From the IMG/VR virus record IMGVR_UViG_2880361019_000008: a stretch of 55,074 nt of DNA; one strand, written 5' to 3'. Of the stretch, positions 35,661 to 45,723 are shown in pieces. The position numbers were made by a program, and so were the translations under genes. The stretch's first letter is position 1, and the number at the start of each line of letters is the position of its first letter. Under the pieces are notes generated by a model. It made no database searches. It had not been told where the DNA came from and saw only the letters and a list, made by a program, of their open reading frames with translations. Source of the stretch: a virus (lineage: Duplodnaviria; Heunggongvirae; Uroviricota; Caudoviricetes).

Positions 35661-35670
35661 ATCCCGGTTT

Positions 35671-35988
35671 ATGACACAGACTGAATCAGCGATTCTGGCG
35701 CATGCCCGGCGGTGTGCGCCTGCGGAGTCTTGCGGCTTCGTGATAAGCACGCCGGAGGGTGACCGAACGAAGGCTGGTACCAGATACGTATTGCTGGTGA
35801 GGACACGGCACCGGAGGCGGTGTATGCCCGCCTTCACGAACAACTGGGTGAGGGAACGGTCATCCATATTGTGCCGCGACTGGCCGGTGCAGGGAAAGGC
35901 GGACTGCAGATTGTGCTGGGGGCGGCAGCCATCGTGGGCTCTTTCTTCACGGCCGGAGCATCGATGGCAGCCTGGGGTGCAGCGCTGA
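35671..35988 (+). pseudogene. K: Tail assembly protein K remnant: first about 30 codons of K fused out of frame to gene I sequence
   Basis: MTQTESAILAHARRCAPAESCGFVISTPEG matches remembered lambda K N-terminus, then an Arg-rich out-of-frame tail. Confidence 0.65.
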
Positions 35989-36281
35989 GTGCCGGCGGTT
36001 TTTCTGCCACCACGATGCTGTTTTCACTGGGTGCCAGCATGATACTGGGTGGTGTGGCACAGATGCTGGCCCCGAAGCCAAAAACACCGGAATACAGGGC
36101 AACGGATAACGGTAAACAGAACACGTACTTTTCGTCGCTGGATAACATGATTGCCCAGGGGAACCCGATGCCGGTGCCTTACGGTGAAATGCTGGTTGGC
36201 TCCCGGCGAATCTCCCAGGACATCAGCACCCGTGATGAAGGCGGGGGCGGAAAGGTCGTGGTTATCGGGCGGCAGGGGTAA
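35763..36281 (+). pseudogene. I: Tail assembly protein I, 5'-truncated by the K-I deletion
   Basis: Frame reads EGWYQIRIAG...HIVPRLAGAGKGGLQIVLGAAAIVGSFFTAG.., matching the middle and C-terminus of remembered lambda I; frame closed upstream by TGA at 35760. Confidence 0.65.
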
Positions 36282-36296
36282 AAAGAATAAAAAAAT

Positions 36297-36320
36297 CCCG
36301 CAGTGTTGCGGAACTGCGGG
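36297..36320 (-). terminator. Minus-strand intrinsic terminator downstream of sodC
   Basis: Hairpin CCCGCAGT-N8-ACTGCGGG with T-run on minus strand. Confidence 0.5.
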
Positions 36321-36438
36321 AGCGTTACGAAGATTGAGTGTAAGGAATTATTCTTATGTCACGACAAAAACATTAACTCAGAGAGGGAGGATGTGCCGTT
36401 CTTTTCAGGGAGAAAGGATTTATCGTCCTGAGGAATAA

Positions 36439-36468: not shown

Positions 36469-36996
36469 TTATTGAATGATGCCGCAGGCCATTCTCGCAC
36501 CACCACCGCCCAGGGGCTCCGGATGGTCATGATGGTTATCACCGCCAGCATGAAGCATGAGAGAACGCCCTTTAATCTCTTTTAATGAGTTCAGTCTCGG
36601 GGCCAGGACCGGGTAGTTCGCTTTTCCGTCATGCGTCACGAACAGCGCAGGGAGGTCGCCCAGGTGTCCATCCGGAGACCAGGGGCCAAGATGTTTGCCG
36701 GTGTTTTTCGGGTCAAAGTGACCGCCAGCCGATAATGCTGCGACCGGTTTTCCGTCTTTCAGTGCCGGGGCGCAATTTCCTTTTTCGTGCACATGAAAAC
36801 CATGAATGCCTTCAGACAGAGAGTGAAGGGCTGGTGTGAACAGCAGACCGTAGGGGGTCTCCTGAATGGTTATTTTTCCAATGCTGACTTCTTTTCCGTC
36901 AGCACTGACAAGGTTCATTGGGACTTCCTGTTCTGCTGCGTATCCGCATGATGCTGCTGTCAGCATGGCAATGGCAGCAATGATTTTACATTTCAT
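36469..36996 (-). CDS. sodC: Periplasmic Cu/Zn superoxide dismutase (prophage moron)
   Basis: 175-aa frame with signal peptide [21 protein letters not shown] and motifs [21 protein letters not shown]; opposite strand to tail genes. Confidence 0.9.
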
Positions 36997-39662
36997 AAAA
37001 CCCTCATTAATTCCGTTAACAGACTGAGCTTGCTGGTTACAGGGTAACAAACAGCGTTCTGATGATATCGCGCAATAGCTGTGCAATATCCTATCACTGC
37101 GATTAATAATACCAATTGAGAGGAACATTATGGGTAAAGGTGGCGGCAGGGCACACACGCCGGTTGAGGCAAAGGACAATCTTAAGTCCACGCAGCAGAT
37201 GATGAGCGTGATTGATGCCATTGGTGAAGGGCCGATTGAAGGTCCGGTGAAGGGGCTGCAGAGTATCCTGGTGAACAAAACCCCGCTGACGGACACGGAC
37301 GGTAATCCTGTGATACATGGTGTGACCGCGGTCTGGCGCGCCGGGGAGCAGGAGCAGACACCACCTGAAGGCTTTGAGTCCTCCGGGGCGGAAACCGCAC
37401 TGGGCGTGGAAGTGACGAAAGCAAAGCCGGTGACACGCACCATTACGTCCGCGAACATTGACCGCCTGCGGGTCACCTTCGGGGTGCAGTCACTGTTGGA
37501 GACCACCTCAAAGGGCGACCGTAATCCCTCTTCTGTCCGGCTGCTGATTCAGTTGCAGCGTAACGGTAACTGGGTGACGGAAAAGGATGTCACCATTAAC
37601 GGCAAGACCACCTCACAGTACCTGGCGTCGGTGATTCTGGATAATCTGCCTGAGCGGCCCTTTAACATCCGGATGGTCCGGGAGACAGCGGACAGCACCT
37701 CGGACCAGCTGCAGAATAAGACGCTCTGGTCGTCATACACCGAAATCATCGATGTGAAACAGTGCTACCCGAACACGGCGATTGTGGGGCTGCAGGTGGA
37801 TGCGGAGCAGTTTGGCGGTCAGCAGATGACGGTGAACTACCATATCCGAGGTCGCATCATCCAGGTGCCGTCAAACTATGACCCGGAAAAACGCACTTAC
37901 AGCGGCATCTGGGACGGCAGTCTGAAACCGGCATACAGCAACAACCCGGCCTGGTGCCTGTGGGACATGCTGACTCACCCGCGCTATGGCATGGGAAAAC
38001 GTCTGGGGGCGGCGGATGTGGACAAATGGGCGCTGTATGCCATTGCGCAGTACTGCGACCAGACGGTCCCGGATGGTTTCGGGGGCACAGAGCCGCGGAT
38101 GACCTTTAATGCGTACCTGTCACAACAGCGTAAGGCGTGGGACGTTCTCAGTGATTTCTGCTCGGCGATGCGCTGTATGCCGGTATGGAACGGCCAGACG
38201 CTGACGTTCGTTCAGGACCGCCCGTCGGATGTGGTGTGGCCGTACACCAACTGCGATGTGGTGGTGGATGATAACGGCGTGGGGTTTCGCTACAGCTTCA
38301 GCGCCCTGAAGGACCGCCACACGGCGGTGGAGGTGAATTACACCGACCCGCAGAACGGCTGGCAGACCTCCACGGAACTGGTGGAAGACCCGGAAGCCAT
38401 ACTGCGCTACGGGCGCAACCTGCTGAAGATGGATGCGTTCGGTTGCACCAGTCGCGGTCAGGCCCACCGTGCCGGGCTGTGGGTGATAAAGACCGGACTG
38501 CTGGAAACGCAGACGGTGGATTTCACGCTCGGGTCACAGGGGCTGCGTCACACACCCGGTGACATTATTGAAATCTGTGATAACGACTATGCCGGGACCA
38601 TGACCGGCGGACGTATCCTGTCCATCGATGCCGCCAGCCGCACCCTGACACTGGACCGTGAGGTGACCCTGCCGGAGACAGGTGCCACCACGGTGAACCT
38701 GATTAACGGCAGCGGTAAGCCGGTGAGCGTGGCCATCACTGCACACCCCGCGCCGGACCGGATACAGGTCAGCACCCTGCCTGATGGTGTGGAGACATAC
38801 GGTGTATGGGGACTCTCCCTGCCGTCACTGCGTCGTCGCCTGTTCCGCTGTGTCTCCATCCGGGAAAACACGGACGGCACCTTTGCCATCACGGCGGTGC
38901 AGCACGTACCGGAAAAAGAAGCCATCGTGGATAACGGGGCCAGCTTTGAGCCGCAGTCAGGCACCCTGAACAGCGTTATTCCACCGGCAGTGCAGCACCT
39001 GACGGTGGAGGTGAGCGCGGCTGACGGTCAGTATCTGGCACAGGCGAAATGGGACACGCCGCGGGTGGTGAAGGGTGTGCGCTTCAGTCTGCGCCTGACC
39101 AGCGGAAGCGGAGAAGACAGCCGTCTGGTGACCACCGCCATCACTGCGGATACAGAGCATCGTTTCGGTGGTCTGCCGCTCGGGGAATACACCCTGACAG
39201 TCAGGGCAATTAACAGTTATGGCCAGCAGGGCGAACCGGCCACCACCACCTTCCGGATTAACGCGCCAGCAAAACCCGCCACCATTGAACTGACGCCGGG
39301 GTATTTTCAGATAACGGCGGTACCGGTGCTGGCGGTGTATGACCCGACGGTGCAGTTTGAGTTCTGGTTTTCGGAAAAACGCATCACGAACACGGCACAG
39401 GTGGAAAAATCTGCCCGTTATCTGGGGAGCGGCAGTCAGTGGACTGTCCAGGGAAGCCGGATTAAGCCGGGGACGGATTTCTGGTTTTACGTGCGCAGCG
39501 TCAACCTGGTGGGGAAATCTGCGTTTGTGGAAGTCAGCGGGCAGCCCAGCAATGATGGTGAAGGGTATCTGGAATTTTTCCGGAAAAAAATAGGAAAACT
39601 GCATCTGGCTCAGGGGTGTGGGAACTGATAGATAACAGCCAGCTTGCAGATGAGATGGCGGA

Positions 39663-39667
39663 GATGA
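39663..39667. repeat. Target-site duplication GATGA (left copy) of the IS21-family insertion
   Basis: Same pentamer at 44711-44715; removing the IS and one copy restores ...[17 protein letters not shown]... Confidence 0.6.
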
Positions 39668-39860
39668 TGCGTATTTTCATGAAAGGAGATCACTCAATAA
39701 CTTCCATCGAGATCGGGTAATAACATTTGAACAGATCGCTGAATAACATCGATGGAGATCACTTTTGACTCATTTTGTTATTCAGTGATCTCCATCAATG
39801 TTATTGGAACTTCACAGGTGTGTTGATCTGTATCTTTTGCCATTCCGGTAAAGGATACCT

Positions 39861-40716
39861 ATGCCAACAGTTCCAATTTCTATGAGAAAACTTAAAGAAA
39901 TTCTTAGGCTTAAATACGGTGTTGGACTCAGCCATCGACAAATTGGTCGTAGTCTTGCAATCTCCCCTTCCGTTGTATCCAGATATGCTAATCGGGCGGC
40001 TCAACTTGGCATAAAGCAGTGGCCCTTACCTACAGGATGGGATGATACAAAACTAAAACATGCGTTCCTTCAGACCCAGGTTAAGATGAAGAAGCACTCT
40101 CTGCCTGACTGGGCTACAGTACACCGGGAACTGCGTAATAAATGCGTGACGCTGCAGCTACTCTGGGAAGAATACTGTGAGCGTAATCCAGGCGGTTTTT
40201 ACAGCTATAACCATTACTGCCGGATGTACCGTGAATGGCTCAAAACCACTTCACCATCAATGCGTCAGGTACATAAAGCTGGCGAAAAACTTTTCGTTGA
40301 TTACTGTGGACCTACCGTTGGCGTTACCGACCCTGAGACCGGAGAAATAAGAACTGCTCAGGTCATCGTAGCTGTTCTCGGGGCATCAAGTTACACATGG
40401 GCAGAGGCCACCTGGTCTCAGCAGCTTGAAGACTGGGTGATGAGTCATGTTCGCTGCTTCCAGTGGTTGGGTGGCGTTCCTGAACTTGTTGTTCCGGACA
40501 ATCTGAAAAGCGCCACATCCAGGGCATGTAAGTATGATCCTGACGTTAACCCTACCTACCAGCAGATGCTTGAGCATTATAATGTCGCAGTTTTGCCTGC
40601 GCGGCCACGTAAACCGAAAGATAAAGCCAAAGCTGAAGTTGGCGTTCAGGTTGTTGAACGCTGGATCATGGCCCGAATCAGGCATGAGATCTTCTACAGC
40701 CTTGCATCGCTTAATC
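39861..40716 (+). pseudogene. istA: IS21-family transposase IstA, N-terminal fragment (interrupted by IS66-family element)
   Basis: 302-aa ORF with HTH and integrase-core motifs; reading frame continues at 43171. Confidence 0.8.
40709..40716. repeat. Target-site duplication GCTTAATC (left copy) of the IS66-family insertion
   Basis: Identical 8-mer at 43171-43178 flanking GTAAGCG...CGCTTAC ends. Confidence 0.7.
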
Positions 40717-40797
40717 GTAAGCGTCGTCTCAGCACCGTCTGGCAGATCCTGAAATTCCTGAGAGAATAGTGGACACCAAATATGGTGGACGCTATCC

Positions 40798-41202
40798 ATG
40801 AAATCATTAACCGCAGTGCGTAAAAAAAGCCCTAATTATCCCGTTGAGTTCAAAATCAAAATGGTTGAACTCTCGCATCGACCAGAGATCTCCGTAGCGC
40901 AACTCGCTCGTGAGCATGGGATCAACGATAATTTGCTGTTCAAGTGGCGCCAGTACTGGCGCGAAGGAAAACTACGTCCTCCTTCAACAACAGAAAACAA
41001 CGTGCCTGAGCTGCTCCCGATAACACTTGATGCCGAAGATGTTGTCCCTACAACCTCCCCCCGGTCACAACCTGTAGCTGCTGCGACACCTGAATCACTC
41101 AATATCAGCTGTGAAGTGACGTTCCGGCACGGATCACTCCGTCTGAATGGTGCCATCAGCGAAAATATCCTGAACCTGCTGATACGGGAGCTCAAACGTT
41201 GA
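40798..41202 (+). CDS. IS66-family accessory protein (orf1/TnpA)
   Basis: 134-aa ORF, first of three IS66 ORFs. Confidence 0.85.
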   Translation: MKSLTAVRKKSPNYPVEFKIKMVELSHRPEISVAQLAREHGINDNLLFKWRQYWREGKLRPPSTTENNVPELLPITLDAEDVVPTTSPRSQPVAAATPESLNISCEVTFRHGSLRLNGAISENILNLLIRELKR

Positions 41203-41546
41203 TCCCATTACCATCAGGGACAAAGATCTGGCTGGTCGCTGGCATCACCGATATGAGAAACGGCTTCAACGGCCTGGCGGCAAAGGTGCAGACGACGCTG
41301 AAAGACGATCCGATGTCAGGTCACGTTTTTATCTTCCGTGGGCGTAATGGCAGTCAGGTAAAGCTCCTCTGGTCTACCGGCGATGGACTGTGTCTGCTGA
41401 CCAAACGGCTGGAGCGCGGCCGCTTCGCCTGGCCGTCAGCCCGGGATGGCAAAGTGTTCCTCACACCGGCACAGCTGGCGATGCTGCTGGAAGGTATCGA
41501 CTGGCGGCAGCCTAAAAGACTGCTTACGTCCCTGACTATGTTGTAA
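41199..41546 (+). CDS. IS66-family accessory protein (orf2/TnpB)
   Basis: 115-aa ORF overlapping orf1 stop. Confidence 0.85.
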   Translation: MIPLPSGTKIWLVAGITDMRNGFNGLAAKVQTTLKDDPMSGHVFIFRGRNGSQVKLLWSTGDGLCLLTKRLERGRFAWPSARDGKVFLTPAQLAMLLEGIDWRQPKRLLTSLTML

Positions 41547-41594
41547 GCCTCTTTATCCTGGTCGACGCTGAATGAGCCTGGTAATATACCCGGT

Positions 41595-43133
41595 ATGAGC
41601 AGCTCACTTCCTGACGATATCAATGCACTGAAACGTCTCCTTGCCGAACAGGAGGCGCTGAACCGTGCCCTGCAGGAAAAGCTGAACGAGCGTGAACGCG
41701 AAATAGACCATCTGCAGGCACAGCTGGATAAGCTGCGCCGGATGAACTTCGGCAGCCGCTCGGAAAAAGTCTCCCGTCGTATCGCACAGATGGAAGCTGA
41801 CCTGAAGGCACTTCAGAAAGAAAGTGATACCCTTACCGGTCGGGTTGACGACCCGGCCGTGCAGCGCCCGCTGCGTCAAACCCGCACCCGCAAACCGTTC
41901 CCCGAATCACTCCCCCGCGATGAAAAACGGCTGCTGCCGGCAGCGTCATGCTGCCCGGAATGTGGAGGCTCGCTGAGCTATCTGGGTGAGGATGCCGCCG
42001 AACAGCTGGAGCTGATGCGCAGCGCCTTCCGGGTTATCCGGACTGTACGTGAAAAGCATGCCTGTACTCAGTGCGATGCCATCGTGCAGGCCCCCGCGCC
42101 TTCACGGCCCATCGAGCGGGGTATCGCAGGACCGGGGCTGCTGGCCCGCGTGCTGATCTCAAAGTATGCAGAGCACACCCCGCTGTACCGCCAGTCTGAA
42201 ATGTACGGCCGCCAGGGCGTGGAGCTGAGTCGTTCACTGCTGTCGGGCTGGGTGGATGCATGCTGCCGGCTACTGTCACCGCTGGAAGAAGCGCTTCAGG
42301 ACTATGTGCTGACTGACGGTAAGCTCCATGCTGATGACACGCCTGTCCCGGTGCTGTTGCCAGGCAATAAGAAAACGAAGACCGGGCGGTTATGGACCTA
42401 CGTTCGTGACGACCGTAACGCCGGGTCAACGCTGGCGCCGGCGGTGTGGTTCGCTTACAGCCCGGACAGAAAAGGCATCCATCCGCAGACCCATCTTGCG
42501 GGGTTCAGTGGTGTACTGCAGGCGGATGCATACGCCGGGTTCAACGAGCTGTACCGGGATGGCCGGATAACGGAAGCCGCCTGTTGGGCTCACGCCCGCC
42601 GTAAAATCCACGATGTGCACGTTCGCACCCCGTCAGCCCTGACGGAGGAAGCGCTGAAACGGATCGGCGAACTGTACGCCATCGAGGCAGAGATAAGGGG
42701 AATGACGGCGGAGCAGCGCCTTGCCGAACGTCAGTTGAAAACGAAACCGCTGCTGAAATCCCTGGAAAGCTGGCTGCGTGAAAAGATGAAAACCCTGTCG
42801 CGACACTCAGAACTGGCGAAAGCGTTCGCATACGCCCTGAACCAGTGGCCGGCGCTGACGTACTATGCAGATGATGGCTGGGCTGAGGCGGACAATAACA
42901 TCGCTGAAAATGCGTTGCGGATGGTCAGTCTGGGCCGCAAAAACTACCTGTTCTTCGGTTCGGATCATGGAGGAGAGCGGGGAGCGCTGCTGTACAGCCT
43001 GATCGGGACGTGCAAACTGAACGGAGTGGAGCCAGAAAGCTACCTCCGCTATGTCCTTGACGTCATAGCCGACTGGCCGATAAACCGGGTCGGCGAACTG
43101 CTCCCCTGGCGCGTAGCACTGCCGACTGAATAA
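41595..43133 (+). CDS. IS66-family transposase (orf3)
   Basis: 512-aa ORF with N-terminal coiled coil and zinc-ribbon CPECGG. Confidence 0.9.
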
Positions 43134-43170
43134 CACATCCCCGTCAATACGGTTCTTGCTGCACGCTTAC

Positions 43171-43864
43171 GCTTAATCAGCGCATTCGGGAGTTGCTGGA
43201 AAGACTGAATAACAAAATAATGCAGAAGTTGGGTTATTCACGTGCAGAACTCTTCATCCAGCTTGATAAACCCGCACTGAAGCCTCTTCCTGAAGCCAGT
43301 TACAGTTACACCCTGGTGAAGAAAGTCAGAGTTCATGCCGATTACCACGTGGAAATCGACAAACATTACTACTCGGTTCCATGTTCGCTGTTAGGCCAGC
43401 AACTGGAAGCATGGATCTCCGGAGAACTGGTAAGACTCTTCAATCAGGGGCAGGAGGTTGCTGTGCACCCGCGCAAGCGTACTTATGGCTACAGTACCCG
43501 CAACGAGCACATGCCTGAAGCTCATCGACAGCATGCCACCTGGACGCCAGAGCGTCTTCTGGAATGGGCGGGGCACATAGGCAGTGAAACTCATAGTTAT
43601 GTGCTTCATATACTGAACTCTCGTCCACATCCGGAACAAAGCTATCGCTTCTGCCTTGGACTCCTGAACCTTCATAAAAAATACAGTAAAGCCAGACTTA
43701 ATGCAGCATGTGCAAGAGCTCTGAAAACAAAGGTATGGCGTCTGTCAGGTATTAAATCGATCCTGGAAAAAGGTCTGGATAAACAACCTGTTCAGGATCC
43801 AAAACCAGATCTGTTATCCACGATGGAACACGAAAACGTACGCGGCAGTGAGTATTACCACTGA
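43171..43864 (+). pseudogene. istA: IS21-family transposase IstA, C-terminal fragment
   Basis: Frame continuous with N-fragment once the IS66 element and one duplication copy are removed. Confidence 0.75.
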
Positions 43865-43875
43865 TACGGGATCCA

Positions 43876-44625
43876 ATGATGAATCATCTTTACGAACAAC
43901 TGACCGCACTTAAACTCACCGGCTTCCGTGATGCGCTTAAAAAGCAACTTGCTCAGCCGGGCACATACCAGGAGCTGGGCTTCGAAGAACGCCTGTCATT
44001 ACTGACAGCAGAAGAACTAACCTGCCGTGAAAACAGGAAGGCAGAGCGTCTGATCAAACATGCACGGTTCAGACTTAATGCTGAGTTATCAAAGCTGGAT
44101 TATCGTAACAATAGAGGGCTGGACAGGGCCCTCATCCGTTCACTCAGTCAGGGAAACTGGTTAACCCTGAAACAAAATATTTTACTGACCGGGGCCACCG
44201 GCAGCGGTAAAACGTTCCTGGCATGTGCACTTGGTCATAATGCCTGCCGACAGGGATACAAGGTCTACTATTATCGCCTTAAAGCGCTGATGGAACAGTG
44301 CTATCAGGGGCATGCTGATGGAAGATACAGCAAACTTTTGACCAGGCTGAATAATAGCGATCTGCTGCTTCTGGATGACTGGGGGCTGGAACCTCTCTCA
44401 TCAGAACAGCGTAGCGACCTGCTGGAAATAGTGGATCTGATGTACCAACGAGGCTCAATCATCGTAGTGAGCCAGTTGCCGGTGGAAAACTGGTACAAAA
44501 TGATCGGAGACTCCACACATGCGGATGCCATCCTAGATCGACTGGTTCATGGCAGTATCAAGATCGAACTTAAAGGAGAATCAATGCGGAAAATACAATC
44601 TCCGTTGACCGAAGGAGATCAGTGA
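43876..44625 (+). CDS. istB: IS21-family ATP-binding helper protein IstB
   Basis: 249-aa ORF with Walker A GATGSGKT and Walker B LLLLDDWG. Confidence 0.9.
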   Translation: MMNHLYEQLTALKLTGFRDALKKQLAQPGTYQELGFEERLSLLTAEELTCRENRKAERLIKHARFRLNAELSKLDYRNNRGLDRALIRSLSQGNWLTLKQNILLTGATGSGKTFLACALGHNACRQGYKVYYYRLKALMEQCYQGHADGRYSKLLTRLNNSDLLLLDDWGLEPLSSEQRSDLLEIVDLMYQRGSIIVVSQLPVENWYKMIGDSTHADAILDRLVHGSIKIELKGESMRKIQSPLTEGDQ

Positions 44626-44710
44626 AGGTAATTTAAAAACGGTTCTGTGAAAGTGACACGAACCGATCTCCATCGATGTTACTCACCGATCTCCTTCACG
44701 GTAATACGCA

Positions 44711-44715
44711 GATGA
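44711..44715. repeat. Target-site duplication GATGA (right copy) of the IS21-family insertion
   Basis: See left copy at 39663-39667. Confidence 0.6.
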
Positions 44716-45723
44716 AGACCAGCATCACGGAAACCCGCAATGAAATCACACAGACGGTCAGTAAAACACTGGAGAACCAGAGCGCCACCATACAGCAGAT
44801 ACAGCGCGTGCAGAAGGACACAAATGATGACCTGGCTGCGCTGTACATGCTGAAGGTTCAAAAAACGAAAGACGGCATTCCCTATGTGGCCGGGATTGGT
44901 GCAGGGATTGAGGATACTGATGGTCAGCCACTGAGCAACATACTGCTGCTGGCTGACCGTATCGCGATGATAAATCCGGAGAGCAGCAACAGCACGCCGT
45001 TATTTGTGGCGCAGGGGAATCAGCTGTTCATGAACGACGTGTTCCTGAAACGACTGTTTGCGGTGAGCATCACGTCATCCGGCAATCCTCCGGCATTTTC
45101 CCTGACGCCGGACGGGCGACTGACGGCGAAAAATGCGGATATCAGTGGCAGTGTGAATGCGAACTCAGGGACGCTCAACAACGTCACGATTAATGAGAAC
45201 TGTCAGATTAAGGGGAAACTGTCAGCCAACCAGATTGAAGGCGATATAGTCAAAACAGTGGGTAAGGCTTTTCCGCGGGACTCCCGGGCACCGGAGCGGT
45301 GGCCATCAGGGACCATTACCGTCAGGGTTTATGACGATCAGCCGTTTGACCGGCAGATTGTTATTCCGGCGGTGGCATTCAGTGGCGCTAAGCATGAGAG
45401 AGAGAGCATACTGATATTTACTCCTCATGCCGTCTGATAGTGCGGAAAAACGGTGCTGAAATTTATAACCGTACCGCGCTGGATAATACGCTGATTTACA
45501 GTGGCGTTATTGATATGCCTGCCGGTTCACGGTCACATGACGCTGGAGTTTTCGGTATCAGCATGGCTGGTGAATAACTGGTATCCCACAGCAAGTATCA
45601 GCGATTTGCTGGTTGTGGTGATGAAGAAAGCCACCGCAGGCATCAGTATCAGCTGAATTTTATAACCCATATACGGGCGCCAGAAATGGCGCCTTTTTTA
45701 TTGCAGAAAAGCGAGAGGTAATT

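Follow-up and report, generated by a model that had tools for sequence, protein, structure and literature searches.

ISEc22 nested within ISEc12 in tail gene J of a defective effector prophage of Escherichia albertii

The 55-kb stretch of DNA analysed here (IMG/VR record IMGVR_UViG_2880361019_000008; its whole length is referred to as the window) corresponds to positions 4,766,284-4,821,357 of CP034212.1, the chromosome of Escherichia albertii 2010C-3449. It holds a lambdoid prophage in which two insertion sequences (IS) lie one inside the other within J, the gene for the tail tip and host specificity protein. The outer element is a copy of ISEc12 (IS21 family); the inner element, ISEc22 (IS66 family), is complete and splits istA, the transposase gene of ISEc12. 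Taken as a whole, the arrangement is very probably the outcome of an insertion of ISEc12 into J, followed by an insertion of ISEc22 into istA, in an effector-carrying prophage that is defective. Such insertions proceed by staggered strand transfer and subsequent repair, which leaves a short duplication of the target. Both levels of the nesting are bounded by direct repeats of this kind, as is apparent from the segments of the structure and of J on either side of it:

37130-39667, + strand: 5' part of J (tail tip / host specificity); the open reading frame (ORF) from 37130 stops at 39626-39628
39616-39617, + strand: 1-bp deletion in J, a single T against TT in intact relatives, from alignment with gpJ of three relatives (L004, L005, L007)
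39663-39667, no strand: GATGA, left copy of the target-site duplication (5 bp), read directly; the duplication is also 5 bp in eleven independent ISEc12 copies
39668-40716, + strand: left part of ISEc12, with the left terminal repeat region and istA (start 39861) codons 1-285 plus one base
40709-40716, no strand: GCTTAATC, left copy of the 8-bp target-site duplication, within the istA sequence; single-copy in intact ISEc12
40717-43170, + strand: complete ISEc22, 2454 bp, with tnpA (40798-41202), tnpB (41199-41546) and tnpC (41595-43133)
43171-43178, no strand: GCTTAATC, right copy of the 8-bp target-site duplication, read directly
43179-44710, + strand: right part of ISEc12, with the 3' portion of istA to 43864, intact istB (43879-44625) and the right terminal repeat region
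44711-44715, no strand: GATGA, right copy of the target-site duplication (5 bp), read directly
44716-45656, + strand: 3' part of J, with its natural stop at 45654-45656 and two further frameshifts

The outer block spans 5043 bp including the inner element, starts with TGCGTATT, finishes with AATACGCA and has TG...CA termini; its terminal inverted repeats are imperfect, with GGAGATC-type motifs two or three times per end. When the inner element and one copy of its duplication are left out, positions 39668-40716 and 43179-44710 join to 2581 bp that match the intact ISEc12 of E. coli 25-07338 (NZ_CM147701.1, 5671-8251) without gaps and at 100% identity; the left part by itself contributes 1049 bp, likewise at 100%. 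On this intact copy, the two halves share just the duplicated octamer and one further base that matches by chance (6711-6719). The original prediction of an IS21-family element at 39668-44710 in J, between GATGA repeats, is borne out in all its coordinates, and ISEc12 is rebuilt exactly. The same element is found in eleven independent insertions with intact duplications, all of which are 2581 bp long, start with TGCGTATT, end with AATACGCA and are flanked by 5-bp duplications, and to which the copy in the window is 99.9-100% identical. Their sites include another IS, gpJ, an antirestriction gene region, an IS3 and a P2-type tape measure gene, as well as parB, lom, a portal gene, a PIN-domain gene and an intergenic site.

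The coding content of the outer block agrees with this assignment. The IS21 two-gene layout is present, with istA (helix-turn-helix and DDE transposase) followed by istB (AAA+ helper ATPase), and the Pfam domains of the products are rve, Mu-transpos_C_2 and IstB_IS21. Rebuilt IstA (39861-40716 joined to 43179-43864) has 513 amino acids and reaches 310.5 bits with NF033546, the IS21 transposase model of NCBIfam (cutoff 160). That istA is restored on removal of the inner element, as had been predicted, is confirmed by the occurrence of exactly this protein on at least 1000 contigs. IstB, the AAA+ target-capture helper of IstA, scores 270 bits against the helper ATPase model NF038214 (cutoff 200) and is an exact match to the ISEc12 IstB on at least 1000 contigs. 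In IstA, the DDE domain is followed by a beta-barrel domain, and the protein binds the multi-repeat ends of the element and cleaves at the terminal CA (PMC10122671). The present copy of ISEc12 would no longer move on its own, because ISEc22 splits istA between the DDE domain (rve; 302-amino-acid truncated product) and the beta-barrel domain (Mu-transpos_C_2; 214-amino-acid fragment); its ends and istB are intact.

The inner element starts with GTAAGCGT and finishes with ACGCTTAC. Its terminal inverted repeats (left, GTAAGCGTCG; reverse complement of the right end, GTAAGCGTGC) begin with GTAAGCG, a start typical of the IS66 family, whose members use the DDE transposase TnpC together with TnpA and TnpB and produce 8-bp duplications. 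TnpC scores 467.8 bits against the IS66 transposase model NF033517 (cutoff 180) and TnpB 119.9 bits against the IS66 TnpB model NF033819 (cutoff 50); TnpA reaches 82.8 bits against the ISRel24-type TnpA model NF047595 (cutoff 74) but just 98 bits against NF038385 (cutoff 150). Each of the three proteins is an exact match to the corresponding ISEc22 protein on at least 1000 contigs, and the element as a whole is 99.9% identical to copies in genomes of other species. Other ISEc22 copies measure 2454 or 2455 bp and are likewise flanked by 8-bp duplications, for example GGATGCTT and CAACAAAT. The family scores and coordinates together confirm the predicted splitting of istA by an IS66-family element at 40717-43170 with flanking GCTTAATC repeats. 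On the + strand of the window, GCTTAATC occurs only twice, at the two positions that flank ISEc22. The element is complete and, judging from its sequence, presumably still mobile.

The pentamer that flanks the outer element is far less distinctive. GATGA has 217 matches on both strands of the window, versus 136 +/- 13 expected from shuffles, which amounts to approximately 0.0026 per + strand position, and it is twice as frequent on the + strand as on the - strand; codon usage or a strand effect of the mostly + strand genes is probably behind this excess. Since the pentamer is so common, the 5-bp repeat considered by itself is weak evidence of an insertion. The reality of the insertion is decided by the exact reconstitution of ISEc12 and of the local J sequence, which is unlikely to come about by chance alone. 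The base that precedes each right-hand repeat copy also matches (AGATGA; CGCTTAATC), leaving a minor ambiguity of the ends; the ends are placed as originally predicted because independent copies show the same ones. Many matches had 8-20 extra matching bases to the left of ISEc12, and a misplacement of its left end was considered on these grounds; the idea was rejected, as the flanks differ among the eleven copies and the element start is always TGCGTATT. The apparent likeness of the left flanks is biased by the ranking of the matches.

At the DNA level, J and annotated gpJ genes share 95-98% identity. The product of its 5' part matches the Pfam families FNIII-A_GpJ, Phage-tail_3 and Ig_J, and that of its 3' part Phage_Tail_Tip and Ig_GpJ_C. 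ISEc12 entered after residue 846 of a 1158-amino-acid gpJ homologue, and the split detaches the C-terminal receptor-binding part from the remainder. Once the block is excised, the joined J sequence has an uninterrupted counterpart in more than 3000 E. coli records, and the 19-residue peptide spanning the restored junction is identical to that of intact gpJ. The prediction that removal of the elements restores the frames of both istA and J consequently holds for istA and for the local junction in J but not for J as a whole, which without the insertions is still not one uninterrupted frame, as frameshifts remain at 39617, 45396-45405 and 45526/7. The first of these is the missing T, located 50 bp upstream of the IS: J reads GGGGTGTGG at 39617, where all intact relatives examined have GGGGTTGTGG (motif CAGGGGTGTGGG at 39611-39622), and the ORF from the J start ends 40 bp upstream of ISEc12. 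The other two were scored in the 3' fragment by alignment with four gpJ alleles plus gpJ of the relative L007. Here, (GA)5 at 45396-45405 in place of (GA)4 creates a stop codon at 45435-45437; further on, an additional T at 45526/7 re-establishes the original frame, and this continues as far as the stop at 45654-45656.

The two insertions probably produced this structure in the following manner: ISEc12 would have inserted into J, the staggered cut leaving the 5-bp GATGA typical of its family; ISEc22 would then have entered istA at codon 286, in the same orientation as ISEc12, and left the 8-bp GCTTAATC typical of its own. That ISEc12 came first and ISEc22 second is likely on grounds of parsimony and because the composite was found nowhere else in the collections searched. 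The original prediction had taken the intact duplications to imply two recent and ordered events, of which the recency stands, whereas the order does not follow from the duplications, which fit either sequence of events: a composite carried into J with the help of IstA from another copy predicts both of them equally. What the intact duplications do show is that neither element has rearranged since its insertion, and later recombination between IS copies is excluded. It is reasonable to regard the insertions as relatively recent, given that identity is 100% between the ISEc12 halves and an intact copy and 99.9% between ISEc22 and copies in other species, and that the ORFs of ISEc22 and istB are intact.

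The same nested event was sought in several sequence collections. With 600-bp junction-spanning queries, none of 5426 complete E. coli genomes proved to have either junction in one piece; the query for the J/ISEc12 junction gave four two-piece matches, which represent a different insertion ~400 bp away, and that for the ISEc12/ISEc22 junction gave a single two-piece match. The latter junction is also absent from 72,556 plasmids, among which no record covers at least 80% of the query, and exact 28-mers of both junctions have no match in GTDB species-representative genomes, IMG/VR or JGI metagenomes. Exact-protein look-ups with the three chimeric or truncated junction products returned the source contig only; the junction-specific 302-amino-acid chimeric protein is thus on one contig among 153 billion gene positions. 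At first sight, a whole-region search placed 87% of the structure in 40 E. coli genomes. These were rejected as separate matches that had been joined, since they reflect either un-nested, neighbouring copies of ISEc12 and ISEc22 in a P2-like prophage or the reverse nesting in E. coli C51. The absence of the event from the complete E. coli genomes is explained by the host being E. albertii, and the event appears to be unique to strain 2010C-3449.

These searches bear directly on the reverse order of events, according to which ISEc22 inserted into the istA of an ISEc12 copy at some other location, and IstA acting in trans then brought the resulting composite of 5043 bp into J, thereby generating GATGA. 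This order would account for both duplications equally well; the composite has retained intact ISEc12 ends and istB, and ISEc12 is abundant and multi-copy in Escherichia genomes, so that a helper copy is plausible. It would also account for the failure to find J interrupted at this site by an ISEc12 with intact istA. The reverse order nevertheless seems improbable, as the ISEc12/ISEc22 junction occurs nowhere else in the complete genomes, plasmids, GTDB representatives, IMG/VR and JGI metagenomes searched, and as it requires the additional assumption of a helper copy and of in-trans mobilisation of an element of double length. A literature search on trans-complementation of IS21 IstA yielded structural papers only, in which no direct statement on the matter was found. 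If the composite did enter J in one piece, one IS would have travelled as a passenger between the ends of another.

Several points weigh against the proposed history, in which ISEc12 preceded ISEc22. (i) In the collections searched, no J carrying ISEc12 with intact istA at this site came to light, nor did a near-identical prophage whose J site is empty; because no such intermediate was found, the order is argued from parsimony. (ii) The view of the source chromosome, and of the copies of ISEc12 and ISEc22 in the cell, is that given by the window. (iii) The names ISEc12 and ISEc22 were taken from the RefSeq annotation of near-identical copies and hence depend on RefSeq/PGAP naming of identical sequences. 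(iv) The three small insertions and deletions (indels) in J sit in short repeats and could be errors of long-read assembly. Sequencing error was considered as the cause of these frameshifts and judged unlikely. The three lesions are probably real, because the ~7 kb of tail genes directly upstream (major tail to L) do not differ in length from those of an O26 relative, no ORF is broken among the head genes further upstream, and the 5 kb of IS sequence is without indels.

A misjoin in the long-read assembly of reads from separate ISEc12 and ISEc22 copies, both multi-copy repeats of the sort that classically cause misjoins and here part of a long, single-contig chromosome, is hardly credible as the origin of the nesting, since it would not yield base-perfect 5-bp and 8-bp duplications of family-typical length at both levels, nor leave a sequence from which the local J and the exact ISEc12 are rebuilt on dropping one duplication copy, and since comparison with other copies reveals no indels in the IS sequence.

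Comparable insertions of both elements are known. ISEc12 splits tssM in E. coli ST131 clade C with the 5-bp duplication ACTGC (PMC10711316); that insertion and the present one are alike in the 2581-bp element, the TG...CA ends, the istA-istB layout, the length of the duplication and the inactivation of a gene by simple insertion, and differ in that here istA is itself interrupted by an IS, as well as in host (E. albertii) and target (a prophage J gene). The inner element does not differ structurally from known ISEc22 (IS66 family, with tnpA-tnpB-tnpC elements such as IS66 and IS679); its target, the istA of ISEc12, is unusual. The closest counterpart of the nesting is that of E. coli C51 (NZ_CP127306.1, 3001-8041), where the same two elements are nested and each duplication is intact, but in the opposite arrangement and at a chromosomal island site: an intact ISEc12 (duplication CCTGT) lies inside tnpC of an ISEc22 (GGATGCTT). 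Between the window and C51, ISEc12 and ISEc22 are thus seen to insert into each other in both directions. The insertion in gpJ of four E. coli from human isolates in Germany (25-07338, 25-07233, 25-06685 and LB858871) involves the same element, gene and orientation; in contrast to the one described here, it is located ~400 bp further downstream, has the duplication GGAGG and an intact istA, and is without ISEc22.

Some ISEc12 copies deviate from this pattern. Those in a P2-like prophage of E. coli AR_0162 and 51008369SK1 (3001-5581) are without a matching 5-bp duplication; their flanks read gagg| on the left and |gccgg or |aaggc on the right, and ISEc22 lies nearby. The sequence suggests an IS-mediated deletion or rearrangement at these copies. 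A purine-rich, GGAG/GGAGA-like sequence directly precedes the left end of many ISEc12 copies, for instance atggcggagatga in the window (39643-39667) and atggcggagag in L013. Such left flanks were seen in the window, 25-07338, AR_0162, L013, L015-L017 and L019, a sample that was ranked by flank similarity and is therefore biased. ISEc12 may prefer purine-rich, GGAG(A)-like targets, which resemble its own IstA-binding GGAGATC repeats, and such a preference could be behind the two independent gpJ insertions within 400 bp of each other.

The prophage runs from an integrase gene through the head and tail genes, lom and the tail-fibre genes to nleL and espN, the order within the tail module being tape measure-M-L-(K'I')-sodC-J-lom-tail fibre. 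Prophages of O26, O111 and other E. coli share 96-98% identity with it; the matching prophage in E. coli O26 RM8426 adjoins ssrA and has an intact J. The host strain, 2010C-3449, is a human isolate from 2010 of sequence type ST5390, stx-negative and without a plasmid (strain table, PMC10673567). Beyond the nested insertions and J, the following features of the prophage bear on its present state:

35760-35764: junction of a 716-bp K-I deletion, with remnants at 35668-35759 and 35765-36355
36469-36996, - strand: sodC (Cu/Zn superoxide dismutase), a cargo gene between I and J; 175 amino acids, Pfam Sod_Cu; appears intact
48183-50531 and 51124-54525, + strand: nleL and espN, type III secretion effector genes, 3' of the tail-fibre genes

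The deletion, scored relative to E. coli SMN197SH3 and others, takes away the greater part of tail gene K (C40 peptidase) together with the initial ~65 nucleotides of tail assembly gene I, and is a lesion of the tail module that is independent of the insertions. The prophage is tail-defective several times over, with or without the insertions: besides these, the three frameshifts in J and the 716-bp K/I deletion render it unable to build a tail. Its nleL and espN are 99.8% identical to the genes of O26/O111 E. coli prophages. A sodC gene between I and J is also found in a subset of E. coli lambdoid prophages. In work on the defective prophage pool of O157 Sakai and on IS629, lambdoid effector prophages are reportedly inactivated by IS insertion or deletion. 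The defective lambdoid effector prophages of attaching-effacing E. coli likewise combine effectors and sodC with tail genes destroyed by IS, frameshifts and deletion; what differs here is the species, E. albertii, and the particular IS.

The nested insertion is nothing new in kind, as both elements are catalogued and nestings of these two elements are already known elsewhere. For annotation, J is a pseudogene disrupted by ISEc12, which is in turn disrupted by ISEc22, and the finding has little import beyond this. The four junction sequences, unique to 2010C-3449 in the collections searched, could serve as lineage markers, and the case cautions that, from intact target-site duplications, it can be concluded that no rearrangement followed, but not in which order nested insertions took place. 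The prophage is to be treated as defective, that is, as a grounded and immobile carrier of nleL, espN and sodC with its virulence cargo still aboard. Effector prophages inactivated by IS are commonplace in this pathogen group, and the present one is a case of ordinary mobile-element wear and tear.

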